A stretch of 64,000 nucleotides of DNA from a virus (lineage: Duplodnaviria > Caudoviricetes). The notes below the pieces were generated by a model. That model worked only from the letters and a program-made list of their open reading frames with translations. It was not told the origin of the DNA and did no database searches. The DNA is taken from IMG/VR virus record IMGVR_UViG_3300036940_000207, positions 5,749 to 69,748 of that record. The stretch is one strand, 5' to 3'. A program made the position numbers and the translations under genes. Of this stretch, positions 1 through 33,974 are shown piece by piece. Numbering within the stretch: the first letter of the stretch is position 1; every line of letters starts with the position of its first letter.

Positions 1-262
1 GAATATCAACTATAACTGCTCTTTTTGTGTTGTGATATATTACAACATTACCAATTTCAAAATGATAAGTTTTTGTTTCTTTGTTAAAGGTATAGTTCTT
101 TGAAGGTGTGACCAATCCCCAATCAACTGCATAACTGAAAAGGACAGATGGGTTATTCCTGTTCCTGGTAACAATTGCCATCTTCTCACCAGCATTAGTA
201 ATATGTGGGTTATGGTCAGGGTGAATTAGTTTGACTAATTCTGTGAAAGTTATTGTGTCCAT
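1..262 (-). CDS. Hypothetical early protein, runs off window edge; HPD motif (J-domain-like?)
   Basis: ATG at 262 after AAGGGG RBS; MDTITFTELVKLIHPDHNP...; open to position 1. Confidence 0.55.
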   Translation of the reverse strand, partial: MDTITFTELVKLIHPDHNPHITNAGEKMAIVTRNRNNPSVLFSYAVDWGLVTPSKNYTFNKETKTYHFEIGNVVIYHNTKRAVIVDI

Positions 263-307
263 CAACTAATCCCCTTGTTTGCTTTGTTCCCCCAATCAAC
301 AGAGTCC

Positions 308-336
308 ACTATACATAAAACCTTTGATGCCGTCAA
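308..336 (-). promoter_or_regulatory. Sigma70-type early promoter
   Basis: TTGACG-N17-TATAGT upstream of the 262 ATG. Confidence 0.7.
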
Positions 337-877
337 TACCTGAAATCATTGAAGATACAAATACTTGGTTGAAATCATTGAAAAACTTTTTTCTTCAAAT
401 ATATCAATAAGATAAAGACAAAAATTTTTGATGAAGGATTTTGGTGGGTTGTGAATAATAAGTAAAATTATATAAATTCTAATATAGATATATTGAGATA
501 TCTCAATATTAATAATATTAAAATCCATATATAATGATATAATGATATAAAGATTTCTTGATATAGTTATTAAGTTGATAATAACTGACAAATTTTGTCA
601 CTTAAAAACACTGTTTTTTCCCTTGACACCTTAATTATAAGTTATTCCCTTATATCCTATTGAAATCATTGAAAATCCTCAAATTTTCCCTCTGACATTG
701 GATTAAGCATCCCCAACCTCATATACCAGGAGCAGGTTAATCATCCAAAATTTGGCCTGTGAGAGGGGTCTGTGAGGATTTGGGGTCTTGGCCCCCATGC
801 CTGTAGGGTTTGAATATTCCAAATTTTTTTATCCAATGAAAACAAAAACTTATAAAAAGATTCAATGATTTCAAGTA

Positions 878-906
878 TTGACAGTTGGTGGGCTATTGGG
901 TATTGT
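878..906 (+). promoter_or_regulatory. Sigma70-type early promoter
   Basis: TTGACA-N17-TATTGT. Confidence 0.6.
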
Positions 907-997
907 GTTCTTGTCTTGAGGGGAAAAGGGTCATTGAGTAAATTATTTAACAAGGATATGACAACTTAATAAGTTAAAAAGAATTTCAAATTTCTCA

Positions 998-1026
998 TTG
1001 ACAAGGGCAGAATCCTTTGATAGTCT
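998..1026 (+). promoter_or_regulatory. Early promoter (near-copy at 1645-1673)
   Basis: TTGACA-agggcagaatcctttga-TAGTCT. Confidence 0.7.
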
Positions 1027-1072
1027 GTTCTTGTTGGTCAGGAAAGGAAAACAAATCAAGGAGATTAGTTAC

Positions 1073-1495
1073 ATGATTAAACCTAACACAAGTTATGAGG
1101 GGCAAGGGGTCAAGGTCATGATTGAAGGTAAGGAATACCCTTTAATCAGGACCACAGCCAAGATGGCCTTCTATGATGTGGATGGTAAGGAAAAGAGGAT
1201 TTCACTTAAAAAAGTTAATACTCAGGATTCAGATAGTAACTCAAAGAAGGGTAAGAAAAGTAGGAAAAGTAATAAAGTAAGTGATTCTAATTCTGATCGT
1301 AAAGGACCAGTAGGTAATGGGAATTTTGGTGGGCACATGCCTAATGTTCCTGAATCCTGTACTCATAGTAGGGTGTTTGTAGATGATAAGGGTGTCAGGT
1401 GGATTGACAATCAAATTTGTAATTCTTTTTGTAAAGTAAAGAAGTGTGATCGGTGGCGTGAATACAGGAAGGAGACAGCAGGTAAAGTAAAGTAA
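1073..1495 (+). CDS. Hypothetical early protein, basic, Cys-containing C-terminus
   Basis: AAGGAG RBS then ATG 1073; the TTG start at 998 in the ORF track is the promoter -35 box; both Trp are TGG. Confidence 0.75.
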   Translation: MIKPNTSYEGQGVKVMIEGKEYPLIRTTAKMAFYDVDGKEKRISLKKVNTQDSDSNSKKGKKSRKSNKVSDSNSDRKGPVGNGNFGGHMPNVPESCTHSRVFVDDKGVRWIDNQICNSFCKVKKCDRWREYRKETAGKVK

Positions 1496-1507
1496 GGAGA
1501 TTAGTTT

Positions 1508-1630
1508 ATGTACATTCCAATGATTACTGAACTTATTAAGTCATTCTTTACTGAATCTGAATACTGGGAATTTATTCAAGAAAATAAATTAAATGATGAA
1601 GTTGATAATTTAACAAAAAATGATGATTAA
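1508..1630 (+). CDS. Small hypothetical early protein
   Basis: AAGGAG RBS, 40 aa. Confidence 0.5.
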   Translation: MYIPMITELIKSFFTESEYWEFIQENKLNDEVDNLTKNDD

Positions 1631-1644
1631 TCTTCAAATTTTTC

Positions 1645-1673
1645 TTGACAAGGGCAGGGTACTTTGATACTCT
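1645..1673 (+). promoter_or_regulatory. Early promoter
   Basis: TTGACA-agggcagggtactttga-TACTCT; leader similar to 998 copy. Confidence 0.7.
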
Positions 1674-1713
1674 GTTCTTGTCAGTCAGGGAAGGAGAACA
1701 AACAGGAGGTCAA

Positions 1714-1941
1714 ATGTCCAGGTCTTACAAGAAGGTTCCTATTGTTGGTAATATAGGATGCAAGTCTGAGAAAAAGGATAAATCAATTGCCAACCGTATG
1801 GAACGTAGGATAGTTAAGAACTATATCAACTCTGGATATGATGTTCTTCCTGATAAAAGGTCCATCTTTAATCTTTATGATATGAATAAGGATGGGAAGA
1901 ATTATAATCATAATGTTGAACCCAAAGAAATGAGGAAATAA
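1714..1941 (+). CDS. Hypothetical early protein
   Basis: AGGAGG RBS, MSRSYKKVP... Confidence 0.75.
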   Translation: MSRSYKKVPIVGNIGCKSEKKDKSIANRMERRIVKNYINSGYDVLPDKRSIFNLYDMNKDGKNYNHNVEPKEMRK

Positions 1942-2204
1942 ATTATGTTGACTCAAGTTACCATTTTTATCATTGACACAAATCCTTTTGAGTGGTATTC
2001 ATTGGGTCAGACATTCACCGCAATCAAGGTTATGGATAAAGATGTGAGAGTTAAATTAGAACAAATAAGACATCAAATTGATAAATTGCTGAATTAAGAA
2101 GAATTAACGTTTATTGGTACTGTGATTGGCTATTATAAGAATTATGCCACTTACGTGAGAGCAGTGAGAAGGGACTACACTTAAAACTTTAAGGAGAATT
2201 TGTT

Positions 2205-2561
2205 ATGAAGAATTACATTGTTGAACACATCAGGGATAAGAAGAGAAATCCTTATGCAACGTTAGTTGGTTATTATCACAATGGAAATGTTTTTATTGGT
2301 GATGCAAAATGTAACAAGAAATTTGATACATTCCAGAAGAGTAAGGGTGTAGAAATTGCTTTAAATAGAGCAATGAAATATATTAATATTTCGAATAATA
2401 GTATTATCTATTCTGACTGGAATGAACTGATTGATGATGAAGTAATTAAATTTGGTAAGAGATGTAAAAAATACTTTAAAACAAATCAAATTTTCTATAA
2501 TCCTAGATTTGAATTCATTGATTCTAGTGTAATTTTAATTTTTATTATTGAGACAGATTAA
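2205..2561 (+). CDS. Hypothetical phage protein
   Basis: AAGGAG RBS, 118 aa ORF. Confidence 0.7.
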   Translation: MKNYIVEHIRDKKRNPYATLVGYYHNGNVFIGDAKCNKKFDTFQKSKGVEIALNRAMKYINISNNSIIYSDWNELIDDEVIKFGKRCKKYFKTNQIFYNPRFEFIDSSVILIFIIETD

Positions 2562-3063
2562 TGAGTAATACTTGGTTTACGTCAGATTGGCATTTCTTCC
2601 ATGATAATATTCTTAAATATGAGAAGAATAATAGACCATTTAATAATATTAAAATGATGCATAACAAAATCATTGCTAACTATAACATGATGGTTAGCAA
2701 TGATTTTGTTATGTATTAGGTGATATTGCAATAGTTAATAACTCTAACTTAAATAAGTTAGATAAAATTATTAATTCTTTAAATGGTAGAAAAATTCTCA
2801 TATTGGGTAATCATGATGAAGGAATGCCATTTCGTTATTTGAAAATGGGATTTGAATCAGTTCATACATCTCTTGAATTGAATGAATGGAAACTTGTACA
2901 TGATCCTGCATGGGCAATAATGCAGAAGAATAAAACACACATTGTAGGACATGTGCATAGTTTATTTAAGATACAAGGAAATTGTATAAATGTGGGAATT
3001 GATGTTAGAAATTTGTTTCCAGTAAGTCTTGAAACATTATTAGAAGAAGAAAAGGGACTGTAA
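2561..3063 (+). pseudogene. Calcineurin-like metallophosphoesterase with a 1-nt frameshift near 2710
   Basis: DWHFFH, LGD, GNHD and GHVH motifs split over two frames. Confidence 0.75.
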
Positions 3064-3077: not shown

Positions 3078-3253
3078 TCAACTATTCAAAAAATTCTTCT
3101 CATTCAGTTTTTATTTTTAACTTATCAATATCTTCTTTAGTAATAACATCTTTATTCATTCTATCTATAATATTTTGAACCGCTGGAATACCATATTTCA
3201 AAGCTAAATCCATAACTTGTAGAATTAGATTTACTTCATGTTTATTCATTTTC

Positions 3254-3736
3254 TTACTCCTTATTAATTAACTCTGACAAACTAATAATTCTATCTATCA
3301 ATGTGTCTGGTACATGAACTCCTTCTATATACTTATCCATAATTATTTCTAGAGTTCTAGTTTCTTCTGCTAGTAAACTTACCAGATGTAATACTTTGTC
3401 TTTGTTATAAACTTTTCTACCTTCATTTAGAGCATCATACCATATTTCAACTTCTTTTTGAAGTTTATTATTATAAATTTTATGGTTTACTCATATAACA
3501 CCAATTTCATCTTTTTGATCCTCATTAATAAGATCTCTTTGTAACAAATCATTAGTTACATTACCAACAGTAGTACTTAATTCCTCAGAATAATCAAGTA
3601 ATGTATAAGCCAATACAAAATCTTTTGATAACTGTTCCCCTTTTTCAGTTGATACATCTTTTGGTAAACATCCAAAGGATGTAATCACAAAACTGATACA
3701 AAACATCATTATCATAACTTCTTTTAATTTCTTCAT
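3254..3736 (-). CDS. Predicted lipoprotein (spanin-like?), code 4
   Basis: Signal peptide ending ITSFG-C; one in-frame TGA extends it to TAA at 3254. Confidence 0.6.
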
Positions 3737-3745
3737 AATATCTCC

Positions 3746-4321
3746 TTATTTGTTTTTCTTTAATAAAAATTCTGGTAAAAATTTTGAATTAAAAAGTTGA
3801 ACCATTTTTAATTTAATTTTTGGTAATTTTGGTCTTCTTTGTGTAATTTCATTCCAGGTATGTAAAAAGTCCTCAATATCCTTCTCTTCAATAATGAACA
3901 ATGATATGTGTGGAATCATTCCACCTTCAAATACTTTAACATCACTTAATTCATTAACAACTAAATCATGGGCAGTTTTATATTGTTCATTTTTCTTCAT
4001 TTCTATAGTTATGAAATATTTACCTACATACTGACCATATAATAATTTTAATCTTTTAGGATTCATTATAAAATTTGAAGGTAATCGTTGCATTAATCTA
4101 ACCAATTTAGGTTTAGTATATGTACCAGTAATTTGTGCTACGGTTATATGAGGAGAATTATTCTGTTGATATGGAATATTAAAATGATCTAACCAACTCT
4201 TAATATATTCTATGGTTTGATTAATATCAGATACATTAACTTTGTATCCAATCATAGTTCTAGACATCTTCTTACCAGTAACCTTATTAGTTTTTTCTTG
4301 TATAAATTTATAAAATCTCAT
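3746..4321 (-). CDS. 2H phosphoesterase (T4 57B/Acb1 fold family)
   Basis: Two HxT/S motifs (PHITV, PHISL); N-terminus MRFYKFIQE. Confidence 0.7.
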   Translation of the reverse strand: MRFYKFIQEKTNKVTGKKMSRTMIGYKVNVSDINQTIEYIKSWLDHFNIPYQQNNSPHITVAQITGTYTKPKLVRLMQRLPSNFIMNPKRLKLLYGQYVGKYFITIEMKKNEQYKTAHDLVVNELSDVKVFEGGMIPHISLFIIEEKDIEDFLHTWNEITQRRPKLPKIKLKMVQLFNSKFLPEFLLKKNK

Positions 4322-4331
4322 AGTATTCTAC

Positions 4332-4988
4332 CTACTTAAATATTTGTTTGTTTTCATCTCATTTTGAATGAAGAATTTCTAACTTACTCATATTTACATA
4401 ATAATATTTATCACAATTAATTCACACCTCATAATTATTATAGTAAGCATCATCAAAACTTCTATCGGTCACAAAGTATTCTTCAAATGATAACTTTAAA
4501 TAATTAGGGTTTTCATCACTTATTAAATAATCACTTATTGCATCATAATCTCATCCTGTTCTCTTATCTTCTATATTAGCATCATCAGATCTAATAAATG
4601 TGTAAGATATATTCCCAATTGGGAATATATAGCATATAGAAGATCCAAATAAAATTAACTTATTTGGATCTTTAGCATTTTTACACATTACAGACTTATC
4701 TCTTCTATTATGGCCATTTTGTTCTAATCAAGTATTCAATGCATTAGCTTCAGAAGCAATCATTCCTTGGGGTTTTCTATTTTTTCTTACATTTTGAATA
4801 TCTATAAACTGATCACCTTTTGGAGTCATACCTCTAACTAAAGGAGATTTACCCTTAATCAATTTAAGATATGGTTTGCATCACTTCTTTACATTATCAT
4901 TAAATTCTTGTAAATCATTGTTTAAATCAATTATGTCTTTTCCAACTTTAACTTCTTCAACTTCATTTAAAAATTTATATAATCTCAT
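4332..4988 (-). CDS. ART-like paralog 1 (putative ADP-ribosyltransferase fold), code 4
   Basis: MRLYKFLNE start; VRG, RDKSVMC, IFPIG and YEVWINCDKY motifs; open if TGA=W. Confidence 0.55.
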
Positions 4989-4998
4989 AATTAAATTC

Positions 4999-5166
4999 CT
5001 ATAATAATATTATTACTCCCTTAACTAATAACAATATTACTCCTAACATTATAACAATGTTTATTAATACTTTAACAGCATTTCTTTTATCAATTTCATC
5101 TGTAACATTAGCAGTTTTAAATACTCCACCCATTCTTAGTAACCATTCCAATCCTTTATACAACAT
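4999..5166 (-). CDS. Small membrane protein, partial duplicate of the C-terminus of 5180-5791
   Basis: LRMGGVFK shared; 20-nt identical DNA stretch; hydrophobic C-terminus. Confidence 0.5.
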   Translation of the reverse strand: MLYKGLEWLLRMGGVFKTANVTDEIDKRNAVKVLINIVIMLGVILLLVKGVIILL

Positions 5167-5179
5167 AATACAATTCTCC

Positions 5180-5791
5180 TTATGCTGATTTTATACTTTT
5201 AATAAATTTAACTACTTCATTACTCTTGATACTTGTTAATACACCTTCTAAAGATGCAAATGAAATATTGGATAATGACATATGTTTAGCGACATGTAGG
5301 ATACTCTTACCAGTTGCTACTCCACCTAATATAGCAAATCCAAATATAATTGTATAAAATACAACCTCTGTTGCTTTCTCTTGTCTTCCTTTATCTGTGA
5401 TTCCAGCAGATTTAAATACTCCACCCATTCTTAATACTTGTCTAAGTGTAACAATATACGCATGATGTCATTTATCTGTCATTTTGATCAACTTTTCAAT
5501 AACACCTTCATCTTCCTTGGTATCTTTACCAAATAACTTCTTGATTTTATCAAGTACAAATTTGAAAGATTTAGCGATAGTTTTTATAATAGTGGGCATT
5601 CCTAGTATCAAAGAAATTATAAGTGTTACAGATACTGCCTCATCTACTCTCCCATTATACTCTACAAGATGTGATTCGTCAATAGGTTTATACATTTGTA
5701 AAGATTCCAGTGTCTTATCAAAACCCTCATTTAATGAAAGTTCTATTTCCTCATTTAAGTATGTGTTTAATTTGTTTAATAATTCAGTCAT
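5180..5791 (-). CDS. Hypothetical protein with hydrophobic segments, code 4
   Basis: Two track ORFs joined by one TGA; N-terminus contains YLNE. Confidence 0.65.
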
Positions 5792-5807
5792 TTAATTATC
5801 TCCTTAT

Positions 5808-7241
5808 TTATTTTATTAATTTTTTTGTAATATTTGACATAATTTCTTTCATTGTATCAGTATATCCCTTACCAAGAAAATTTAATCCACTTATATTTCA
5901 AATACCTGTGGCGTGTCCACCACTACCTTGTTCTATAATATCCCAGGTACTTATTTTAACTCTTTCTAATATATCCTTCTGCTTTCTGGTTAAATCTTTA
6001 AATCTTTTGTTAGTTATGTCTTTAACCATATCTGTTCATTTTTTCTTACCATCTACTTCAACCCCTTTAATCTGTTCGGGGGTGAATTGTGATATTAAAT
6101 CATCAAATGTAAATCCAACAGCACCTTCTAAATTTTTCTTAGTTATATCTTCTTCATATTTCTTCTTTAAATAGGCAAGACTCACCATATTATTTTCTCA
6201 TTGAGATTTATATTTGTTTAATACTTTATTTACCACTTCTTGAAAATTTACTGTTACATTCTTTTCCTTAAATGGATTAGCACTTACTTGAATCATTCCC
6301 ATTGGTCATCCCATTACTAAAAATTTAGCATCTGGATGATTTTTAAATACTACATATCTATCAAATTGAACACCTCTCTTTGGTGACATATTTCCACCAC
6401 CATATTGAATTACCACATTGCCTAATTCTCCAGATTGACCATTTTGTAAATTCTTAATATCTTTAGGTGACTTTAAATCAACAATATTTTCTTCTTGTTG
6501 TTTAACATATGTTTGTTGTTGTTGTTCAATTTCTTCAGGTGCTCTATACCCTTCTTGTTTTGCTAACCTTCTAGTAACATTATACAAAGATATAATAGAA
6601 GGGTTTGCTGTTTCTACTAATTTATTAAGAAAATCTGGTTTGTTCTTATATGAAAGTAATAACTTATTTGCTACAAGTCCCATTCTTCATTTGTTATCTT
6701 TTACTGAAATTGAACGATCCAGTCCAAAAGCTGCTCTCATTATATCATCTGGAGTTAAACCATGTTTATAAAAATCTGCTGAATCTACTGTTGAAATAAT
6801 TTCCAAATCTTGCATTGGAGAAATTAATCTTTTAGACATTTCAGCAGATATATGATAAGCATTAGCTGGTGCATCAATAAATGAGGTAGATGTTCCCGGT
6901 TTAATTCCACTTTGTCCTGAATGGTGATCTGTTCATACATTAACAAAGGGTTTGCCTTGACTAAAATCAACCATACAAACTAATGTATCTTTATCTCATG
7001 TTTTCTTTACATTATATGATATGTTCCCATATTGAACTACTTGAACATCTTTTAATTTCAAATTATATTCATTCTGTAAAATATATTTAAGTGAAATTGC
7101 CGAAAAAACACCATCTAAATCCATGTGGTATAAGATACTGAATTTATTGTGTTTTTTTATAAGGTTTTTCAATCCTTTTATATTTGCCTCATCTAATTTA
7201 TCATAGATGTCTAATTCTTGTAATCATAAATCTAGTTTCAT
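5808..7241 (-). CDS. DHH-family phosphoesterase (477 aa), code 4
   Basis: HMDLDG, MVDFS, WTDHH and SGGH motifs; N-terminus MKLDLWLQE. Confidence 0.8.
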
Positions 7242-7598
7242 TTATAAACCTCCCCCCATAGCAGCACTAGCAGTAGTTAAAAATGGTGTCATATCTATAC
7301 TTATGTTTGAAGGAATTTCTTTTTGTTTTGAAAGAAACTCTTTTATTTCTCTCTCTAAGTTGTTCTCACCTTTTTTAGTTGGTGGATATTCTTCAGTATG
7401 AAATATAGATTTATTCTTATACTTAATATCTACCCATATTTTCTTACTTTTCTCCTTTTCATTATCAATTACAGATTTACTAGGTATATTATTTTGTAAA
7501 ATTACGAAATTATATTTTCCCTTTTTAAAAGTATATAATATTTTTGATCATTTATATTGATCTTCTAATAAATATTTCTCCACTAAATCTAGTTTCAT
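7242..7598 (-). CDS. Hypothetical protein, code 4
   Basis: MKLDLVEKYLLE start; one TGA. Confidence 0.6.
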
Positions 7599-7882
7599 TA
7601 TGATTCTCCTATTTCTTCTTTAGCTTCTTGTTCACCATCTGTTCTGTTACTTTCATAATCTTTATCTAATTTCTTTAATAAATGTTCAAATTCACCTACA
7701 TGATGTTCTTCTTCATCACTTACATGTAAAAATATCTTTTTCACATCTGGATCTCTAGCTTTCTGTGCCATTTTTGAATATAAGTTAGAAGCATATCATT
7801 CTTCTTTAATAGCTTCTCTTAACATTTCAACATCTGTATATTCATCATAATTATTTTCATTTAAAAATTTTCTTAATCTCAT
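7598..7882 (-). CDS. Ferritin/rubrerythrin-like protein, code 4
   Basis: EAIKEEWYA...Y and EEEHHVGEF di-iron-type motifs; MRLRKFLNE start. Confidence 0.7.
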
Positions 7883-7891
7883 AATAATCCT

Positions 7892-8140
7892 TTATATTGA
7901 ATATTTACTTAATTGTTTCATAACACTCTTTGGTGTTTCATATGGCAAATCTAATGTAATAGTACCATCCTTCTCTTTCTTCTGTTTAACACCTTTCTTT
8001 TTCAAATCTTTCATTAACTTCTTAACATAACTATCCTTTGGGTTAATTCTAACCATTTTATTAGATATAGCACTATCAGCATCTAAGTTACCAACTGTAG
8101 ATGTGGTTATTTCTTCATTTATTCAGTCTCTAAATTTCAT
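7892..8140 (-). CDS. Small hypothetical protein, code 4
   Basis: MKFRDWINE start (W=TGA). Confidence 0.6.
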
Positions 8141-8141
8141 A

Positions 8142-8856
8142 TTATACCTCAAATAATCTATCAAATATTTCTTCATATACTAGATCAAATTCTTTATAAT
8201 GAATTCCATAATAAGATTTTGACATTAACATAATTTCATTATGTTTGGGTATATTTGGTATATCACTTGCGTCTGAAACTTTATACTTTCTTACCAAATC
8301 ATATATATATGATTTCATATCTTGTTCTGCTTCACCACTTAATAAATATTCTTTAAATACTTGATATGATTCAAACTGTTCTTGTTCGAAGTCATCCATT
8401 CCTAATCATACAGATCTTGTATCACCACCTTTTTTTAAGAAACCTGATATAAGATCAAAATTTATTACTTAAATGATCATATAAATCTCTAACTTTAGGT
8501 GATCACATTAATTTGTATTTTCCTATAGGAAATATTACATAAGTTGTACCGTATGCCATTGTTTTTATATAATTAATATAACAAAATAAAGATGAAGATC
8601 TAGGTCTAAATCCAAATTCATCATAAAATTCATTATCTATTATATCATGTGTTTCTTCAGGAGTATCTAATGGTATTCTGTCTTGTCTCACATCTCTTTT
8701 TATAATAGTTTTAGAACTATTTCTACCAGAATATAAAAGATTTGGTCATGATTTTCTTTGTTTCTTTAAATCATTAATAAATATAGAACAATCCTTTTTT
8801 AACTGTTCTATATCTTTACCTACAGATACTTCATTTAAATAATTGTATAATCTCAT
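8142..8856 (-). pseudogene. ART-like paralog 2 with a 1-nt frameshift at about 8430-8460
   Basis: MRLYNYLNE; YSGR, RPRSSSLFC, YG..YVIFPIG; terminal NEIML motif lies in the downstream frame. Confidence 0.55.
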
Positions 8857-8857
8857 A

Positions 8858-9487
8858 TTAACCAATTCCTAATTTCTGCTTAAATTCACTTCAATAATCG
8901 GGATGAACCAATATATATTTATCACAATTAAATATTGCTTCAAATGAAGGGTTTGCTGTTCTAGTTAAATATTTTGGTAATTCTTTGGAACTATATTTTT
9001 TTCTATACATATCTACTATATGTTTTCTGATAATTTCCAAATTCTCAGATTTTTCTTGTTCTGAATAAAGATCACTATTTTTAGTTATTCCATAATCATC
9101 ATATAAAGAATAAACTGCACGTTTTGTAGGTCCATATGCTCATACATACTGATAATTACCCATAGGTATGAATATAAATCTTTTACCAAAACTTAGAGCT
9201 GTTCTTTCATCTCCAGTAAAGGCGCCTTCAGATCTTATATTTCATCCTCATAATTCTTTTGATACCTTACCTAAATATTCATGTAATTCTTCAGGAATAA
9301 ACCTTGGTTTTCTATTTTTATGAACATTCTTAACAGTATAATGTGTAGTGCTTACTTTATTATGTCCTCTTCATATTAATTGGTCCGTTTCTTGTTCTAG
9401 AACAGACCTAAATTCTTTAAGAAATGGCTCAATAGCAGATTTAATCTTATCATCAACTTTTTCATTTAAATAATTATATAATCTCAT
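8858..9487 (-). CDS. ART-like paralog 3, code 4
   Basis: MRLYNYLNE; WRG, RSEGAFTG, FIPMG and FEAIFNCDKY motifs. Confidence 0.55.
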
Positions 9488-9488
9488 A

Positions 9489-10052
9489 TTATTCTAACTC
9501 TCTTAATTTTTGTTTAATCACTGATATAATGTTTTTTTGTGTAGTGGTTAAATTTCTCTTCGATTCAAGATTGGATAAAATTTCTTTAGTAGATCTTACA
9601 GTTTTATCTCTAAAAGAAGAAGATGCTTGTTTAAGGTCTGAAACATTATCTAGTCTATCAGCTAACTTAATAACTAATGCCCAATCACTCATATTAATCA
9701 TTTTGTCCGATAAATATTTAGATTTGCCTACCTTTTTTATTTCTTCAGGATCACTAGTTAATTCTTTAACTATGGAAGCAACCAATCCACCAAATAATTT
9801 ATTTAAATCTTTAAATGTAGTATTTGTATCTTCGATAGTATCATGAAGTAATGAAGCAGATATTAATTGATCTAATTTATGGGATTGTTTGAACTTTTTA
9901 ACTATTGCAGCTACTCTTTTTGGATGTTCAAAATATGGTTCATTTGAAAATTTTCTTCTTTGTCCTTTATGTTTAATAGAACCAAATTTTTCAGCAAAAT
10001 CTTCAATTGTTGCTGCATCTTCTAATATAGAAATATAACTCTTTAATCTCAT
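9489..10052 (-). CDS. HD-domain (p)ppGpp hydrolase-like protein (SpoT/MESH1 type)
   Basis: H.GQRRK...PYFEHP, LLHDTIEDT, IKLADRLDN. Confidence 0.85.
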   Translation of the reverse strand: MRLKSYISILEDAATIEDFAEKFGSIKHKGQRRKFSNEPYFEHPKRVAAIVKKFKQSHKLDQLISASLLHDTIEDTNTTFKDLNKLFGGLVASIVKELTSDPEEIKKVGKSKYLSDKMINMSDWALVIKLADRLDNVSDLKQASSSFRDKTVRSTKEILSNLESKRNLTTTQKNIISVIKQKLRELE

Positions 10053-24821: not shown

Positions 24822-25303
24822 GATCATCAGCAATAGATTTTCCAGTTGTATATAAAAATAAAAATTATCTAATAGTACCTTTCAATATTAATGAAATAGT
24901 TACTACAGAAGAAGATGAAGAAATAATAACATATAATTTTTGTTTGTATAAGGAAAAATTTAGATCTAATAAATTACACTATATCAAAAATATAGTATGA
25001 AAAATGTTAGAATATGATTTGCATAATCATATATATCCTGAATATAATCAAGGATCACAATCATCAATCCAAGGATACGCAAACAAAGCAAAAGATGAAG
25101 ATAAATTTGATATTTATGAAGAATGTAAGAAGATCCAAGAATGAATAGATAGTTGTTTAACATATTATTATGATAAAAAGGATGAAATTTTTTACGCAAC
25201 AAGTGTAGAAGATGTTACAGTTGTTAATTGGAATTTTATTCAAAATGTTCCAAAACCAAATAACTTACTAAAGTTAAGAGAAATTAAAGAAATGTTTAAA
25301 TAA
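24812..25303 (+). CDS. Hypothetical protein (tail-fibre-assembly-like), code 4
   Basis: Overlaps RT stop; open with TGA=W. Confidence 0.55.
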
Positions 25304-25314
25304 GAGGTGAAAAA

Positions 25315-26850
25315 ATGGTATGATACAATCCAAGAGATTGATTAAATGAATCAATTAAAGCATTCAAATCAAAATCTGATTATTTAACAGATAAACAACA
25401 AGCAACAGTATCTGGTGAAGGATATGAATCTTTTGATATAACTGGATTCGGTTCTACTGGATTATCTAGTTTTAACATGTTTTATAATCAATACATTAAT
25501 AAAACATATAAGAATGAAGTTGCTAAGATTTATCATTATAGAAATATGGTTAATAATCCTGAAATTTCAGATGTTGTTGAAGATGCTGTTAATGAATCAT
25601 TACAAGAAGATACAGAAGGATATATAATTAATTTTAAAGTTAGTGATGAATCAATATCTAATAAAGAATCATTGATGAAAAATATTAATAATGAATTCTA
25701 TAATTTCTTCTATAACAAATTAAATATTGAAGAATCAGCATGAAATATATTTTATGATTATTTTGTTGATGGAAGAGTATATTTAGAAAATATTATTAAC
25801 GTTAATAGACCCAAAGAAGGTATTATTGGATGGAAACGATTACCTTCTGAAACAATGGATAGAATGTATGATGAATTTGGAAGAATTGAAGCATTTCTCC
25901 AATATTTAAGCAGAGATCCGAAAAAACCTAAAGATCTAGAAGATGCTGAAAGAGATGATAAAATTATTGTATTCTACCCTGAACAGATAACCTTTATTCC
26001 TTATCAATATGGTCAAAATAGAAATATAATATATGGATTCTTAGAAAAATGTAAGATTCCTTATAATCAGTTGAAACTTTTAGAAACTGCTATGGTGATA
26101 TATAGAATTGTAAGAGCACCAGAAAGATTTGTATTCAAAATTGATACAGGTGCTATGCCTAGAGATAAGGCAATGAAGTATGTCGAGAAAGTTAAGCAGA
26201 AAATGAACAAAAAACAGACATTTGATCCTAACACTGGTACATTACAGAACAGTTCAAGTGTGCTCAGTCTCCTAGATAATTATTTTTTGCCCCAAAGCGA
26301 TAACCGTGGTTCAGATATATCAACAGTTGGTGGATCAAGTAAAGGATTTGAATCATTGGATGATATATTTTATTTTCAGAAGAAATTATATAGAGCACTT
26401 AAATATCCTATGAGTAGAGTAGAAAATAAATTTGAGAATAGAACAGGTGATAATTTATTTCATGGTAATGCAATGGGGGAGATAACCAGAGATGAGATTA
26501 AATGATCCAAATTCTTAGAAAGACAACAGAAAAAAATTGCTGATAATTTGAAAGAGTTATTCCTATTACATTTAAAATTTAAAAATTTAAAAGATACTTA
26601 TGGATTAACCAAAGATAATTTTCAGATTCACTTTAATGATCCATCTAATTATAAGAGCCAAATGGATCAGATGTTATTAGAGACAAGAATCAATAATTAC
26701 ATGCATTTATCAAATGAGGAAGGATTCAGTAAGTTCTTCTTAATGAAACATTATCTTAATTGAGATGAAGAGACTATTAAAGAAAATGCTGAAGGAATAA
26801 AGAAAGATAAAGAATTAGGTCTTGTATCAAAAGATGGTATGGGATTCTAA
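25315..26850 (+). CDS. gp20: Portal protein (T4 gp20-like, 511 aa), code 4
   Basis: YFVDGR, LETAMVIYRIVRAPER.FKIDTG, ITRDEIKW; five TGA. Confidence 0.95.
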
Positions 26851-26883
26851 ATAGAATAGAATCAAATAAAAAAGGAGAATGTT

Positions 26884-27087
26884 ATGGGTGATGTAAACAA
26901 AGAAAATGTAAAGAAAGCATTGGATAATTTCGAAGATGAAAAATACGTTCAAAGTAGAGACATATTAAAGAAAGAGTTCAGAAAGAAATTTAATGATTAC
27001 TTAAAAAAAGAGTTAGATACTGAAAATGATCCTGTCGATGGTATCGAACCAGAAGAACCAGAAAAAGACAATACTGAAGATGAATAA
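26884..27087 (+). CDS. Small prohead core protein (gp67-like)
   Basis: Position after portal; acidic C-terminus. Confidence 0.5.
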   Translation: MGDVNKENVKKALDNFEDEKYVQSRDILKKEFRKKFNDYLKKELDTENDPVDGIEPEEPEKDNTEDE

Positions 27088-27189
27088 GTAATTGTTATTG
27101 TTTGATTTTTAAAGTGTGGGAGAATACTATATTCTTTCACACTTTTTTTATAAATAATTTAGATAAATATTTATAATAGGAGAATAAAT

Positions 27190-27813
27190 ATGAAAAAGTT
27201 GAAACTTATAACTGAGAGTAATTTTGACATATTAACCGAAGAAGATTCTAACAAGAATTTATATGTAACTGGTATATTTTCTTCAGCTAACAAAAAGAAC
27301 AGGAATGGTAGAACATACCCCAAGCACATATTAGAAAGAGAGGTAAATAAACTAAAAGATCAAATTAAAGAAAATGGTCCCATACTAGGTGAATTATCTC
27401 ATCCTGAAAGTAGATGTGAAACAAAGTATGAGTTAGCTTCTCATGGAACTGAAGAGTTATGATGAGAAGGAGATAATGTTTATGGAAGAGCAAAGGTACT
27501 AAAAAGTTTACCTTATGGATCTGTTCTTGAGGGTTTAATAAAAGAAAAAATTAAGATAGGGATTTCAAGTAGAGCACTTGGAAGTTTAAAAGAGAATAAT
27601 GAAGTGTCAGAAGATTTAAATATGATTTGTTGGGATGCAACTTCTAATCCTTCAAATTATGGAAGTTGGGTTAATGGTATACTTGAAGGTAAAGAATTTA
27701 GTATTCCCGAATCTCAAGTTATGGAACCTAATGAAGAACAGATCAAAGAGGCTAAAGAAGAATATTATAGAAAACTTTGACAAGTAATTGATAATATTGA
27801 GAAGAATTTATAA
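27190..27813 (+). CDS. gp21: Prohead protease (T4 gp21-like), code 4
   Basis: GIF..ANKKNRNGRTYP, GELSHP, GISSRALGS. Confidence 0.93.
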
Positions 27814-27824
27814 GGAGAGAAATT

Positions 27825-28052
27825 ATGCAAGATAAGACATTATTAGAAAAATTAAATTTATTTTTAGGTGAATCTGAAATTGATTGAAAACAGGTAAAAG
27901 AAGCAATGATAAATGCCGCTGAAGATATCTTTGATGAACCAGATAAAAAGGTTATTGATGATATGATTTCTACTATTAAAAAGAGAAATGATGCTAAGGA
28001 TACTGAAGATGCGATCCAGATTGGCATTAATATGATGAGAAGTGAAGACTAA
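27825..28052 (+). CDS. Small head-region protein, code 4
   Basis: LLEKLNLFLGE N-terminus; one TGA. Confidence 0.6.
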
Positions 28053-28066
28053 TATAAGGAGAATTT

Positions 28067-28369
28067 ATGCAAAATAAACTATTAGAAAAAATTGATAAAT
28101 ATTTGGAAGGTAGTATTAACCTAGATGAAAAAGTTTCTAGAAAAGAAGCTCTTCAAAAAGTAGAGAGAACAATAAAATCAGCAAAAACAGACAAACAATT
28201 AGAAGTTGCATCTAAAATGGTTGGAAACTTTATTAAAATGTATGGTGAAAAATTCATTGATGATGTTAAAAATCTTTTAAGTCCCCTTAGAAAAAACACC
28301 ACTGATAAATTTCTGAGAATGATTGATGATCAAAAAAAGAAAATTGAACTGGAAAAAGAAAGATCATAA
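28067..28369 (+). CDS. Small head-region protein
   Basis: LLEKIDKYLE N-terminus. Confidence 0.65.
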   Translation: MQNKLLEKIDKYLEGSINLDEKVSRKEALQKVERTIKSAKTDKQLEVASKMVGNFIKMYGEKFIDDVKNLLSPLRKNTTDKFLRMIDDQKKKIELEKERS

Positions 28370-28480
28370 TTTTCCCATAAACACTGGACTTTTTAACAAT
28401 TTTAACAATTTCTAGTGTTTACTTATAAATAAGATTAGATAAAGACAAATTTAAAACAATTCTAGAAGGAGGAATAAAAT

Positions 28481-29215
28481 ATGGAATTAGATAAAATCCT
28501 AGAGATGTTAGGTGTTGATAAACTTGACGAATCTAAACAAACAGAAGTTCAGGAAAAACTTCAAACCATTATTGAAACTAAAGTAGATGAGAAGGTCAAG
28601 GAAAAGGAAGAAACTCTTAAAGAAGAGTTAACAGAACAATTTGAGCAAAAATTTGAAGATTATAAAACTGATATTACTGAAAAATTTAGTAATTTTCTGG
28701 ACGAAGTAATCGAAGAAGAGATGAAAATCCCTGAAAAGATTAAGGAATATGCAAGAAAGGGTGAATTATACTCTGATGTTATGGAAACATTGAAGGTAAG
28801 AATGGGAATTGATGAAGGTGTTCTTGATGATGAAACTAAGAGTTTGATTAAAGAATCAAGAGATGAAATTTCTAAACTTACTGATCAAGTTAATTCTTTA
28901 ACTTCTGAGAACATGGAAATGAAGAAAGATGCTAAAGAGTTAAGTGCTGGTCTTTATCTAAGAGAGAAATGTGAAGGTCTACCTTTTAAACAAAAGGAAA
29001 AGATTATTTCTTTACTAGAAGGTATTACTTCTAAAGAAGAAATTGATAAGAAGTTTGATGTTTTGGCTGAATCAACCAAGAATGAAGAAACTGAATTAAC
29101 TGAGGAAAATAAAGGTAAGGGTAAAGAGGAAGGTAATTTAACTGAAGAAGTAAGTGATGATCCATTTACCCAAATGAAACAACAATGATTAACCATTATG
29201 AGTGAAGAAAAGTAA
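28481..29215 (+). CDS. gp22: Prohead scaffold (T4 gp22-like), code 4
   Basis: E-rich coiled coil before the major capsid gene; late promoter at 28424. Confidence 0.8.
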
Positions 29216-29252
29216 TTGAAATATAAATATTCTAAAGGAGGAATTAAAAATT

Positions 29253-30458
29253 ATGAATAAACAAATTTTAGAAAAATGAAAGGAACTATTAGAGAGTGAA
29301 AATGCTCCAAAGTTCAAAAGTAATAAAGTTAAGGAAGCTACTGCATTGATGTTAGAGAACCAGTTTTCTTATTTAAGCAAACAAGGTTATAACATGAATG
29401 AAGCAATTTCTGATCCTGGTACAGCTGCTTATTCAGGTAGTTTAACACCTCAAGGAAATTCTTATGGTCAAAGTGGATACTTTCATAAGATTGCTATTCC
29501 AATGGTAAGAAGAACATTTCCTGAGTTAATTGCTCACGAAATTGTAGGTGTCCAACCAATGACTGGACCAGTTGGATTAGCATTTGCTATGAGATTTAAG
29601 GCTGATCAAACTTATAATAGTGGAACTAATCAAGAAATTGGTTACAATACTATTGATAAAGACTATTCTGGAACTTATGAAACAAGTGCTGGTGAAGCAT
29701 TAGGATCTAATGAAACTAATGATTTGGGTCTTGGATTTGGAGATGGTACAGCTATCAAAGAATTAAGTATGACCTTAGAGAAAGATCAGGTCGAAGCAAA
29801 AACCAGAAAGTTAAGAAGCAGATGGTCAATTGAAGTTGCACAAGATATTCAAAATATGCACGGACTTGATCTTGAAAGTGAAATGACAGAAGCACTTTCC
29901 TACGAGGTAACTGCAGAAATTGATAGAGAGTTAATTGGTGAGATCAGAAGTGTTGCACCTCCTACTTCATATGATTATGACACTGATTTTGATGGTAGAT
30001 GGGAATCTGAAAAATATAGAAATCTATATAATGCAATGATCAGAAAAGCAAATAGAATTGCAGTTAAGACAAGAAGAGGTCCAGCTAATTGGGCAGTTGC
30101 TAACCCAACTCTTTGTGCAGCTCTTGAATCTACACCAAGTTTTGCTACACATCCAACGGGTGCAAATGTAAACACTGCTATTACTGGTGTTGCAAGAGTT
30201 GGATCATTAGATGGTAGAATGACTCTTTATAGAGATACTTTCTATGATACTGATAGTATTCTATTAGGATTCAAGGGTGTGAACGAATACGATACTGGAG
30301 TTGTTTATCTTCCTTACATCCAATTAATGTTGGATAGAGTTACTGATTATGCAAGTTTCCAACCTGCAATTGGTTTACTAAGTAGATATGCAATTCATAA
30401 ACATCTCCACGGGGCTTCAAATTTCTATGAAGAATTAGTATTTACTTCAATGCCTTAG
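29253..30458 (+). CDS. gp23: Major capsid protein (T4 gp23-like, 401 aa), code 4
   Basis: AAGGAGG RBS; MNKQILEKW(TGA)KELLE; VGVQPMTGP, VEAKTRKLRSRWSIEVAQD. Confidence 0.97.
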
Positions 30459-30515: not shown

Positions 30516-31211
30516 TTATTCATATCTAACCTCATTAATTTGTTTTAAAATTTCAATTTCTCTGTTTATACCCGGAAAATATTCTGTTTGTACCGACCAA
30601 CCAAAACCTAAACCTTTATTTTCCCAAAAATCTATAAAATAAGGCATTACTGTTTCATTAGATACTTTAATAAAACTATCTTTCTCAAAAATTTTTTCTA
30701 ACAAAGAATAATCAAAATACTTATATAACTTATCAATTACATAATCCCATTCTTTTCTCTCTTCCATCAGTTTTTTATTCCCCAATTCACAAAATGTAGA
30801 AGGTAATGGGCATTTTTTATCATGAAAACCAACCTCATAATTATTATAATCCTTTAAATATTTCAAATCCAAATTTATAATATCTTTAAATATATACTGT
30901 ATAACAACTGATCTTAATTGTATCCAATAAGGAATTATAACTACTTTATATCCCATATTGGTATATACTTCTTTCTTTTTATAGTCATTTAAAATTGTGT
31001 CTGGATTAGTATAATGAAACTTCCCATTAAACTCAATGATTAAATTTAATTCTTCAATTCTATAATCAGGTCTGTTTTTTATTCCACTACCAGGAACAAT
31101 TTTATCGTGATATATTTCACACTCTGGTAAGAACTCGGTTAAAAATTTACCTAATATCTCTTCAGTTAGATACCCCTCAACTTGTTCATAATCATAATTA
31201 ACTTTAACCAC
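30516..31211 (-). CDS. PD-(D/E)XK / DUF559-like endonuclease
   Basis: RPDYRIEELNLIIEFNGKFHY; four Trp, all TGG. Confidence 0.6.
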   Translation of the reverse strand: MVKVNYDYEQVEGYLTEEILGKFLTEFLPECEIYHDKIVPGSGIKNRPDYRIEELNLIIEFNGKFHYTNPDTILNDYKKKEVYTNMGYKVVIIPYWIQLRSVVIQYIFKDIINLDLKYLKDYNNYEVGFHDKKCPLPSTFCELGNKKLMEERKEWDYVIDKLYKYFDYSLLEKIFEKDSFIKVSNETVMPYFIDFWENKGLGFGWSVQTEYFPGINREIEILKQINEVRYE

Positions 31212-31227
31212 ATTAAACTCCTTGTTT

Positions 31228-31785
31228 TTATTCCTTCTTATATATCAACTCCCATTCTTCACTATCAACCATTACATCTCTCATAGTATCGGGGTCTAAT
31301 CTTTTAGCTTCATATCCACCAAATTTATAACCTATCTTATCATAAGCATAAGAATAGAGTCAACTACAAATTGGGAAATCTTCTATAAATCCTATCCTCC
31401 TGAATAAGTAAATATCCTTTCTTTTTCTCAATAATTTAGTTAATGAAAAATCAGCTAGAAATAATAATAATTTTAATCCACCATATATGTTACCTTTATA
31501 CTTATTCAAATATTCTTGAATTACATGTTGTTCAAATTTAGTTAAATGTTTCTTCCTTCATACCTCAAATCTTTTATGATTATCAAATCATTTTAAGTAG
31601 TTAGTATCTTTAACTGTTAATCCAGCTTCGGAAATTGTATCAGGATATTTAAATCCTGATATATGTGTAGAATATACTCTTTCTTCTCCTGGTTCTCTAC
31701 TAAATCAAGCAACTAATTTACCAAACAATGATTTTCTATTAACACAAATAACATCTCCCGTTTCAAATTTTGGATAATTGATCAT
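31228..31785 (-). CDS. Permuted papain-like amidase (YiiX/YaeF-like), code 4
   Basis: GDVICV..., YSTHISG, ICSWLYSYAY; own TATAAATA late promoter near 31811-31818. Confidence 0.6.
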
Positions 31786-31866
31786 ATATCCCTCCAAATA
31801 AAAATTTAATTACTATATATTTATAGTAATAGAATTTTAAAAAGATATTATGGGAGTATTTAGTTG

Positions 31867-32052
31867 TTATGCATATCATTTATAAAGTTGTTTGAATAAA
31901 TCAGTAAGTTCTGTATATCCAAGTTGTATAAGAAAATTAACAAGTATTTCATCTGCGATGTGATGGTTTTCTTCTCTATCAGTTTGATCATCAACCAGTT
32001 TTTTCATTTTTTCAACTGCTTCAGTATAAATTTGCTTATTTGTTTTCTTCAT
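31867..32052 (-). CDS. Small hypothetical protein
   Basis: HHIADEIL...LGY...KW(TGA)YA. Confidence 0.55.
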
Positions 32053-32062
32053 AATTTTCCTC

Positions 32063-32272
32063 CTATACTAATTCAAATTTAACTGGTCCTTGATGTGGAT
32101 AAAATACAACACTGTACTTTTCTGCAACAAGATATACTGCCTTATCATTTTCATATATTAATTTGGTGAACTCTTCCAAAGTATCATAATCACTTAATTC
32201 TTTACTTAGTTCTACTGTGACAAGATGATGTTCAACTCCATTTAAAATCTGAAAAATCTTTATATGTGTCAT
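32063..32272 (-). CDS. Hypothetical early protein
   Basis: ORF in early operon. Confidence 0.55.
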   Translation of the reverse strand: MTHIKIFQILNGVEHHLVTVELSKELSDYDTLEEFTKLIYENDKAVYLVAEKYSVVFYPHQGPVKFELV

Positions 32273-32273
32273 A

Positions 32274-32582
32274 TTAATCTCCTATAATTTCAATGATATC
32301 AATTAATGAAACTAAATCACTAATTTTTAATAGTTTAGTAGCTTTCTTAATATATTCTTGTCTTGAATATTCAGTCCAACTACCATCATCATAATACCAA
32401 CCACAACCATCTTCATGATTATGTACACAAAATTTTTCATGTAATACTTCTGCTAATCTTAAAGTTTCTTCACTATAAGGCAGATTTTTTCTTTTCTTCT
32501 TTTCTTCCTGTAAAGAATTTTTAAGTTCCTCTAGTTCTCGTTCTCTTTTTTCAACATCTGATTCTAAATCACGGATATTCAT
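32274..32582 (-). CDS. Hypothetical early protein
   Basis: LHEKFCVHNHEDGCGWYY. Confidence 0.65.
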   Translation of the reverse strand: MNIRDLESDVEKRERELEELKNSLQEEKKKRKNLPYSEETLRLAEVLHEKFCVHNHEDGCGWYYDDGSWTEYSRQEYIKKATKLLKISDLVSLIDIIEIIGD

Positions 32583-32990
32583 AGAACCCCCAATTTTATT
32601 CTACTAAATTAATCTTCTGGACAATACACTTCAACTTGTTCGTTAAAATAATTAAACTTTTCACCTGGAGAAAAATATACTTTACAGATTGGACCATCAA
32701 CTATCCAACATTCCTTATTCTCATCCCACCACGAACAATCAGGATAGGTATCATAAGTAATTTCATTATTAACATCAAACAGTAATATAATTAGTTCTCC
32801 TATAGTTTTAAATAGTTTAATGATCTTCTTTCAAATTCACAAATTTCACATTTTTCATTTGTAGGTCTTAATTCTTTATATTGAAGAGATATACCCGCAT
32901 AATATGGACATAAAGAAACAATATTCCCTAGTTTATAATATGTTTCATGTCCCATTCTTATCCATTCATATTCATAACTTCTTCTATAAC

Positions 32991-33251
32991 TTATGATGGG
33001 TTATTTTTATTAACATATTCCATAAACTTATCAATTCCATCTGGTTTCCAAAACTCAATTAAAATCCAACCTGTTTTCTCATTAATTCCCTGGAGAAACG
33101 GACATGCGTTAAACTTTATTTTATATTCTTCATAATCTGTTAGTTGATTTAAAACCAATGATTTCAGAAATTTAATTTCTTCTTTGGTAGCATCTTCCAC
33201 TTCAATACAAAATTGATCATGAACACTTAATTTTAACTCAAACCTAGACAT
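32991..33251 (-). CDS. Hypothetical early protein
   Basis: AAGGAG RBS, ATG 33251. Confidence 0.6.
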   Translation of the reverse strand: MSRFELKLSVHDQFCIEVEDATKEEIKFLKSLVLNQLTDYEEYKIKFNACPFLQGINEKTGWILIEFWKPDGIDKFMEYVNKNNPS

Positions 33252-33376
33252 TATCAATCTCCTTTTGATTTCCCTCTCAAAGACAAACCCAGTATACCAA
33301 AGCATAAAAAAATGTCAAGAGAAATCCATAAAAATTTTCTCTTGACATTTCAAATGGTTACGTACAATTTTAATAA

Positions 33377-33742
33377 TTATTCTTGTTCAATCGAGATTTT
33401 CTTTGAATCATTCTTTTCTGTTTCTAAGTAAATTTTAAGTAATCCATCCTTAACATATGCCTTAACATCTCTAATCCCATTTCCAAGAAACAGAGTTTTA
33501 TTCAATTTTTTCCCATCATCATTATCACCAAATACTGTCAAATGCCCCTTATCTAATGTTACTTCTAAATTATCACTATTAAAACCAGGAACTTCAATTT
33601 CCACAAATCTATTACCTTCTTTATCCTTTTTAAACATATATTCAAGTTTATTAGTTAAGAAATTTTCAAACCAATTATCAAAATCTGCATTGAAAAAATT
33701 GGTTAAAATGTTAGATGGTCGGTATGTTAGTTCATTCCTCAT
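33377..33742 (-). CDS. Small heat-shock protein (Hsp20 family)
   Basis: IEVPGF...LEVTLDKGHLTV...AYVKDGLLKIYL; AAGGAGG RBS. Confidence 0.85.
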   Translation of the reverse strand: MRNELTYRPSNILTNFFNADFDNWFENFLTNKLEYMFKKDKEGNRFVEIEVPGFNSDNLEVTLDKGHLTVFGDNDDGKKLNKTLFLGNGIRDVKAYVKDGLLKIYLETEKNDSKKISIEQE

Positions 33743-33827
33743 ATTCAAAACCTCCTTATCAATTTATTTATTCTTAATATAACTATTAATTAAATCATTG
33801 TCAAGAGATAACCAACAATATATTATA

Positions 33828-33974
33828 CTAATCCCTGCGGGATTATGAGGATTCAGTCACTATCGTTCCTTCATCCTCATATCTTTATATATTAACTAAA
33901 TCTATTGCATAATATTATCCTTCCTTTCGTCTCTTGTTAAGAGACAGTCTAACAAAGTTGATCAGTTTTGTCAA
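33828..33974 (-). repeat. Early promoter/leader/hairpin module, copy 2
   Basis: Same architecture as 17468-17621, with compensatory stem changes. Confidence 0.8.

Follow-up and report, generated by a model that had tools for sequence, protein, structure and literature searches.

How can a phage use TGA freely as a sense codon in some of its genes and almost never in others? The question is raised by a 64,000-nt stretch of virus DNA (hereafter, the window) that spans positions 5749-69748 of one 69,748-bp virus contig (IMG/VR record IMGVR_UViG_3300036940_000207; GC content 27.9%). The contig covers roughly 29% of a T4-like myovirus genome from oil-field metagenomes. A preliminary description had noticed, by eye, that genes behind TTGACA promoters are nearly free of in-frame TGA and that genes behind TATAAATA late promoters are rich in it, and had proposed that the phage changes its genetic code during infection. 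We found that the partition extends across the contig, and it probably marks a phage whose early genes are readable under the standard code and whose late genes need UGA to be read as Trp.

In-frame TGA is partitioned by promoter class

Genes were called under code 4, and 102 were kept as credible across the contig. Each gene took the label of the intergenic promoter closest upstream of it on the same strand, and co-directional genes inherited that label, with TGA content ignored. Exact TTGACA occurs 42 times on the contig, with 13 copies falling in the 7.8% of DNA that is non-coding (3.3 expected, p = 1e-5). Of these 13, 11 are oriented toward a gene and have a -10-like hexamer 16-18 nt on. 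The late motif, TATAAATA, occurs 26 times, including 12 copies in non-coding DNA (2.0 expected, p = 1.6e-7). Early promoters stand 23-52 nt upstream of start codons, and 13 copies of TATAAATA precede a start codon on the coding strand by 19-117 nt (19-57 nt bar one at 117 nt). A generic sigma-70 scan showed no enrichment over shuffles; enrichment was limited to exact TTGACA in non-coding DNA.

The 30 genes in early units contained 9 TGA and 45 TGG codons, as compared to 254 TGA and 84 TGG in the 72 genes of late units (Fisher test, p = 1.9e-16). The preliminary description had staked its case on TGA:TGG ratios differing between promoter classes genome-wide, and the difference over the 69.7-kb contig is sharp. 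It persisted among promoter-proximal genes, with 0 TGA and 18 TGG in early genes versus 44 and 11 in late genes (p = 6e-10). By unit, the TGA share of Trp codons ranged from 0 to 0.24 in 7 early units and from 0.25 to 1.0 in 13 late units, with no overlap (Mann-Whitney U = 0, p = 3e-4), and none of 20,000 gene-label permutations gave a difference as large as the one observed. Since early and late blocks each occur on both strands, the partition is not a strand effect.

In the early regions singled out beforehand (1-3063, 15060-17399, and 30516-33742 minus 31228-31785), a hand count of about 28 TGG and 2 TGA was borne out by 23-29 TGG and 2 TGA, where the spread in TGG stems from two doubtful small open reading frames (ORFs) and a gene running off the window start. 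Both TGA exceptions were where they had been reported: 16971-17180 has its TGA at codon 45 of 69, and 31867-32052 at codon 59 of 61. Under the standard code the second amounts to a stop, and three more residues would be added after the switch. Given 36 Trp codons in the core early blocks, approximately 27 would be expected to be TGA and 2 were, a roughly 13-fold under-use. TGG is the only Trp codon in 17 of the 19 Trp-containing genes of these blocks, and 25 of 25 genes end in TAA or TAG. Early genes had been described as near standard-code. TGA is indeed nearly absent from them as a sense codon, but it also ends at most two of them, and they are better called dual-coded.

Late genes use TGA at the neutral level predicted by composition. 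Its share of their Trp codons is 0.76, similar to the shares of other A-ending codons (AAA 0.77, CAA 0.84, TTA 0.83, GAA 0.87), which agrees with the earlier argument that so AT-rich a genome would favor TGA wherever it is usable. In early genes the share of TGA falls to 0.06, versus 0.65-0.86 for other A-ending codons. In-frame TGA occurs 0.26 times per kb in early genes and 4.83 times per kb in late genes; off-frame TGA is equally common in both (7.6 and 25.9 per kb in early genes versus 5.2 and 22.5 in late genes). Reading the 55 late genes with TGA under code 11 from the same starts yields 18% of their residues. No N-terminal bias of TGA was seen within late genes, and there is therefore no sign that TGA is placed early within genes.

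The portal, protease, terminase, sheath, tube, gp4, and baseplate genes all carry TGA. Three genes cited beforehand as TGA-rich and behind late promoters, those for gp4, the reverse transcriptase (RT) of a diversity-generating retroelement (DGR), and the portal, are as TGA-rich as claimed and lie inside late units, although they are not each directly behind a TATAAATA. A fourth, at 31228-31785, had been termed a late-promoter amidase embedded in the early strand. Its TGA content and its upstream TATAAATA were both recovered, whereas the name amidase found no support in hidden Markov model or PDB searches.

TGA encodes tryptophan

In an alignment of the terminase with 37 homologues (50-63% identity), 33-37 of the 37 have Trp at the positions of eight of its 12 TGA codons, and most of the remaining TGA codons fall in aromatic columns. 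None of the 12 is at a Gly column, ruling out code 25 (TGA = Gly), which is used by Gracilibacteria and Absconditabacteria hosts. Because most terminase TGA codons match conserved Trp columns and none match Gly, the alignment indicates that TGA is Trp (code 4) rather than Gly. Relatives at 72% and 54% terminase identity likewise require TGA to be Trp.

A TGA-free TrpRS is conserved in the early class

One early operon (15060-17399) encodes a tryptophanyl-tRNA synthetase (TrpRS) and the peptidyl-tRNA hydrolase Pth2. The TrpRS matches NCBIfam TrpS models at up to 1e-86 and, as its best PDB match, 5tev at 1e-60. It groups with about 28 metagenomic proteins, at 45-79% identity, more closely than with any named cellular TrpRS. 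The nearest cellular relatives are scattered among Halobacteriovorax, spirochaetes, and Microbulbifer (41-48% identity). The KMSKS motif is invariant in the clade, and in 8 of 8 contigs (the window and seven related ones) the TrpRS gene has 0 TGA, with 17 TGG in total, while neighboring genes do carry TGA. The order TrpRS, small ORF, Pth2, divergent from a gp2-like gene, recurs in a related fragment (L063:4118-6677) with 58% TrpRS identity. The small ORF after TrpRS had no detectable homology across four contigs, and none of the papers searched linked Pth2 to phage recoding.

Lineage and relatives

Virion genes were identified with PHROGs and Pfam, which revealed a T4-type virion and packaging set on the contig: gp17, gp20, gp21, gp22, gp23, gp18, gp19, gp4, gp2, and a gp5-like protein. 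No lysis gene was identified with certainty among the annotated genes. The closest cultured phages are T4-like cyanophages, with about 37% gp17 identity, and a near-identity DNA search gave no match among cultured phages. The same DNA is contained in 24 sequencing runs labelled oil field metagenome. Each contig end falls within an ORF, and the 29% completeness comes from CheckV, corresponding to a full genome of roughly 240 kb.

Two IMG/VR relatives, G002 (67.9 kb) and G003 (24.8 kb), display the same mosaic of TGA-free and TGA-rich blocks. By position, TGA/TGG counts are approximately 129/24 versus 11/25 in G002, and they are 22/58 versus 13/8 between blocks in G003. The promoter rule fits G002 poorly, as its early promoters lack exact TTGACA. 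G002 also has a weak gp55-like match (E = 3.5e-6) that spans two reading frames with a short overlap (G002:C1:61920-62292; L065/L066), which may reflect a frameshift, a sequencing error, or two genes. Another TrpRS-bearing T4-like relative, a 112-kb ENA contig (L002) with 38% GC, has sparse in-frame TGA, such as one in gp23, which may mean that its recoding is light or incipient.

A probable change of genetic code during infection

We assign a probability of about 0.75 to the reading that this phage runs two genetic codes in time, with early genes readable under the standard code and late genes requiring UGA to be Trp. In the early phase, sigma-70-type promoters would be usable by the unmodified RNA polymerase of a host that presumably uses the standard code. 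Early genes, TrpRS and Pth2 among them, would be written for such a cell, avoiding in-frame TGA and stopping at TAA or TAG. The late phase would comprise the genes behind T4-type TATAAATA promoters plus a few distal early-operon genes, which have about 4.8 TGA per kb at Trp positions and whose proteins could be completed only after UGA is read as Trp. The UGA-reading tRNA would most likely be a tRNA-Trp(UCA) encoded on the remaining ~70% of the genome and charged by the phage TrpRS. Pth2 might then recycle peptidyl-tRNA released as RF2 and the suppressor compete. The code switch during infection put forward in the preliminary description is thus supported by the partition, the assignment of TGA to Trp, neutral late use, and a TGA-free TrpRS, and none of the tests that could have contradicted it did so. 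The partition may be adaptive, gating virion and lysis proteins, or it may be no more than a passive trace of which genes are translated after the switch, and the sequence fits either.

Several observations weigh against a code change in time. Both promoter classes are motif predictions, and accepting TTGACA within coding sequence as well weakens the promoter-proximal test to p = 0.0025. This is because three chance TTGACA hits stand before TGA-bearing genes, and hence the restriction to intergenic promoters matters. Some genes break the rule in either class. Left of the window, ThyA-like (4 TGA/0 TGG) and MTTB-like (3/2) genes carry TGA in the distal part of a leftward early unit. Late units contain TGG-only genes at 11911-12999 (HNH/CapR), 13156-13389, 30516-31211 (HNH-like), 40878-41327, and 3746-4321, as well as an 1862-aa protein with MAM and Ig-like domains (41331-46919) that has 10 TGA and 17 TGG and a GC content above its surroundings. 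Promoter class is not the sole determinant of TGA use, which further qualifies the original contrast between the classes. A weak point of another kind is the gene at 31228-31785, for which the amidase label is unconfirmed, with no Pfam, NCBIfam, PHROGs, or PDB-sequence match.

The decoder and the host are also points of weakness. No credible tRNA was found on the 69.7-kb contig, which is ~29% of the genome, by ARAGORN in default, relaxed, mitochondrial, or intron searches (relaxed thresholds ps85 and ps70) or by Rfam (at gathering score and at E <= 5). No tRNA(UCA) was present on related fragments L002-L008, L015-L024, L062, L063, G002, and G003, and G003 carries 13 tRNAs that include Trp(CCA) and not UCA. 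RF1 was not among ~70 scanned proteins, although not every small ORF was scanned and the contig is a partial genome. Relatives have been binned into metagenome-assembled genomes (MAGs) spread over unrelated low-GC taxa: a terminase profile searched against species genomes hit only short contigs in Woesearchaeota, Thermoplasmata, Shapirobacteria, Izimaplasma, Bacilli, and Clostridia MAGs. These bins are read as mis-binning and not as a host link.

Some further details touch these genes. The ThyA-like and MTTB-like genes (L001:1532-3389) sit in an otherwise TGA-free early unit that also contains an S-adenosylmethionine (SAM) lyase and a cREC_REC protein, and they may be delayed-early DNA-modification genes. 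The 1862-aa protein is the only large late gene with more TGG than TGA and is likely a more recent acquisition. The gene at 31228-31785 has no similarity to a Peptidase_C92 gene adjoining a related TrpRS. Hits with a tca anticodon on the contig at ps70 all lay within coding sequence and were rejected. The tRNA-Trp(CCA) of G003 (L056; 8662-8735) has a short D stem, and the tRNA genes of G003 sit in a TGA-poor block.

Alternative explanations

Gene age could replace timing if TGA-free genes were recent imports from standard-code phages or cells that have not yet drifted from TGG to TGA, making the association with promoters indirect. The early regions of T4-like phages are hyperplastic, as this explanation presumes. 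GC content at third codon positions (GC3) is 0.21 in early genes versus 0.14 in late genes, and the exceptional genes of late units have a mobile or imported look: those at 11911-12999 and 30516-31211 are of HNH or homing type, and the 1862-aa protein is richer in GC. However, early genes share the phage's A-ending codon bias, and only 2 of their 36 Trp codons are TGA in place of the ~27 expected. TGA-free blocks have been retained in G002, G003, and L063. TrpRS is TGA-free in all eight contigs despite an identity spread of 46-80%, and a gene so divergent across its clade has had ample time for drift. We therefore consider gene age unlikely as a general explanation. Recent import most likely explains the exceptions and not the rule.

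A second alternative keeps the switch but dispenses with the classical tRNA(UCA). UGA would be read by a phage tRNA-Trp(CCA), as in G003, or by a modified host tRNA-Trp, in either case after charging by the phage TrpRS. Pth2 would be indispensable as a third component, removing the peptidyl-tRNA that failed UGA events leave behind. If true, this would be a code-change module of new composition, consisting of TrpRS and Pth2 with no RF1 and no UCA tRNA. We regard it as improbable.

It is more improbable still that the host itself uses code 4, as a Mollicutes-like cell would, and that early genes avoid TGA owing to, for instance, a UGA-reading tRNA that is scarce early in infection or codon bias linked to expression level. 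The GC content of 27.9%, a contig without a suppressor tRNA, and one relative binned with an Izimaplasma MAG are what such a host would predict. Other binned relatives are in archaeal and candidate phyla radiation (CPR) MAGs, pointing to mis-binning, and a code-4 host would account neither for a 13-fold depletion confined to one promoter class nor for a conserved TGA-free phage TrpRS. Moreover, T4-like phages of ~240 kb with strong Shine-Dalgarno sites and -35/-10 promoters are not known from Mollicutes.

We give almost no weight to a dual-host strategy, in which dual-coded early genes let infection start in both standard-code and UGA-reassigning hosts and the late code is no timer: early genes do avoid TGA as sense and almost wholly as stop, and spacers of code-25 bacteria target code-11-compatible phages (PMC10746230), but late genes would be unreadable in a standard-code or code-25 cell lacking a Trp-inserting UGA decoder, and the phage's own TrpRS fits a self-made switch better.

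Organization of the window

As shown in Table 1, early and late units alternate along the window.

Table 1. Units, promoters, and principal genes of the window, with in-frame TGA and TGG counts.
Feature	Position	Strand	TGA/TGG	Remarks
Early block	1-3063			3' part of a leftward gene and 7 small rightward genes (1073-3063); 0 in-frame TGA; stops TAA/TAG
Gene ending at 262	1-262	-	0/4	
Early promoter, sigma-70-like	308-336	-		TTGACG-N17-TATAGT; serves gene ending at 262
Early promoter, sigma-70-like	878-906	+		TTGACA-N17-TATTGT
Early promoter	998-1026	+		Repeated promoter-plus-leader family TTGACAAGGGCAG...GATAGTCT
Early unit	1073-1630	+	0/3	
Early promoter	1645-1673	+		Second window copy of TTGACAAGGGCAG...GATAGTCT family
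Early unit	1714-3063	+	0/6	
Late unit, 14 genes	3082-10759	-	30/8	Behind TATAAATA at 10788-10795
Late promoter TATAAATA	10788-10795	-		Back-to-back with the next
Late promoter TATAAATA	10792-10799	+		
Late unit	10831-15053	+	19/5	Last gene gp4; includes TGG-only 11911-12999 and 13156-13389
Head closure gp4	14595-15053		6/0	
Early operon, 7 genes	15060-17399	-	1/5	Two TTGACA promoters, 17423-17451 and 17593-17621
Pth2	15267-15608	-		113 aa; 0 TGA
TrpRS	15788-16756	-		322 aa, full length; KMSKS kept; 0 TGA
Early gene with one TGA	16971-17180	-		44-aa product under standard code
Early promoter	17423-17451	-		TTGACA-N17-TATAGT
Early promoter	17593-17621	-		TTGACAAAACT...TGTTAGACT family
Late promoters TATAAATA	17632, 20022, 21260, 27149, 28424, 29222			Of the 17757-30458 late units
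Late units	17757-30458	+	55/14	Pooled; HNH endonuclease, gp2, tail protein, DGR RT, portal, protease, scaffold, major head
gp2-like end protector	18994-19473			
DGR RT	23751-24821		6/1	
Portal	25315-26850		5/1	
Prohead protease	27190-27813			
Scaffold	28481-29215			
Major head protein	29253-30458			
Single late-promoter gene	31228-31785	-	4/1	Within leftward early strand
Late promoter TATAAATA	31818-31825	-		32 nt upstream of 31228-31785
Early units, 6 small genes	31867-33742	-	1/5	Including Hsp20-like
Early promoter	33291-33318	-		TTGACA-N16-TATACT; TG ahead of second hexamer
Early promoter	33776-33804	-		TTGACA-N17-TATATT
Early promoter	33946-33974	-		TTGACAAAACT family
Late units	34021-64000	+	146/52	Pooled; beyond the range first described; PhoH, homing endonuclease, large terminase, connectors, MAM-domain protein, sheath, tube, baseplate/tail
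Large terminase	38271-39806			PHROGs/Pfam
Sheath	49724-51499			
Tube	51560-52105			
Baseplate hub	60154-61461			

Two families of early promoters are repeated. The first, together with its leader (TTGACAAGGGCAG...GATAGTCTGTTCTTGT...GGAAGG), has three near-identical copies, at 998-1040 and 1645-1690 in the window and at ~5230-5270 of L001, left of the window. The second (TTGACAAAACT...TGTTAGACTGTCTC) also has three copies, two in the window (17593-17621 and 33946-33974) and one to its left (L001 3783-3811).

The non-coding region at 263-1072 lies between divergent early promoters, with 602 nt separating the gene calls at 262 and 865 and the region continuing to the gene at 1073. It contains four copies of a 14-nt element, TTGAAATCATTGAA, at 340, 369, 660, and, inverted, at 861, two of which adjoin a -35 box (promoters 308-336 and 878-906). 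An AT-rich palindromic center is found at 490-509. The region may hold an operator or UP element, or may be a control or origin region.

A further shared leader (AGAAGGACAGAG...CTTTGA...CTAAC.TCTATATAAT) is located at 11830-11910, 17675-17756, and 36825-36906, in each case ahead of an endonuclease gene. TGA/TGG counts for the three endonucleases are 0/2 (11911-12999), 10/2 (17757-19010), and 9/1 (36907-38262), so one upstream element accompanies both codon styles. TGA-rich paralogues occur at 4332-4988, 8353-9487, 13716-14324, and 36102-36665, and correspond to PHROG families 11975, 15932, and 12810, in which no function is annotated.

Comparison with known systems

The principle of a code switch is already published, and this case does not change it. 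The work of Borges et al. on gut phages reportedly appeared in Nature Microbiology in 2022. In their TGA-recoded gut phages (Jade and Agate), the code-change genes (suppressor tRNA, TrpRS, and RF1) are in standard code and the structural and lysis genes are recoded, from which they proposed early standard-code translation followed by a code change, with promoters not analyzed (10.1101/2021.08.26.457843). A suppressor tRNA was found in only 35% of the code-4 genomes in that study (10.1101/2021.08.26.457843). The present phage resembles Jade and Agate in that TGA is read as Trp, structural genes are recoded, and TrpRS is TGA-free. It differs in being a T4-like myovirus from an oil field rather than a gut, in that neither tRNA(UCA) nor RF1 was found on the fragment, and in pairing TrpRS with Pth2, a partner that the published module of suppressor tRNA, TrpRS, and RF1 lacks. 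Its codes form a fine mosaic of ~20 units, readable per promoter, instead of two large blocks.

Using Mgcod, Pfennig et al. described dual-coded early blocks that read alike under both codes and late genes that need the alternative code (10.1101/2022.06.29.495998), and found that code changes tend to coincide with strand switches (10.1101/2022.06.29.495998). Those cases were mostly crAss-like phages with amber recoding and a few with code 4, and their blocks were resolved by 5-kb windows. Here, switches also occur within one strand, as at the gene 31228-31785, and track promoter motifs.

Seki et al. (2025) reported that TrpRS:tRNA-Trp(UCA) pairs of phages AP1 and HF2 insert Trp at UGA in E. 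coli extracts (PMC12636597). By description rather than by sequence, the TrpRS in the window is likened to these in that a phage TrpRS is tied to UGA-to-Trp recoding, although it has no known cognate tRNA.

T4 uses sigma-70 early promoters and TATAAATA late promoters that depend on gp55, gp33, and gp45, and keeps the standard code throughout. The present phage is like T4 in its virion genes, in having TATAAATA ahead of the major head, scaffold, protease, sheath, and tube genes at a distance of 19-57 nt, and in having canonical -35/-10 promoters ahead of small early genes. Unlike T4, it is recoded, and gp55 had no match on the contig, where gp33 and gp45 were also absent. This case extends recoding to a T4-like lineage and to a habitat other than the gut, the clades published so far being from human and animal guts. 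Promoter classes here place the code boundary gene by gene, including at a late-promoter gene within the early strand, with a quantitative signature in which late genes use TGA with full neutrality and early genes all but exclude it. The conserved early TrpRS-Pth2 operon also points to an extra player. The good understanding of transcription in T4-like phages would make a cultured representative of this lineage a good system in which to ask whether recoding is a timer or a by-product.

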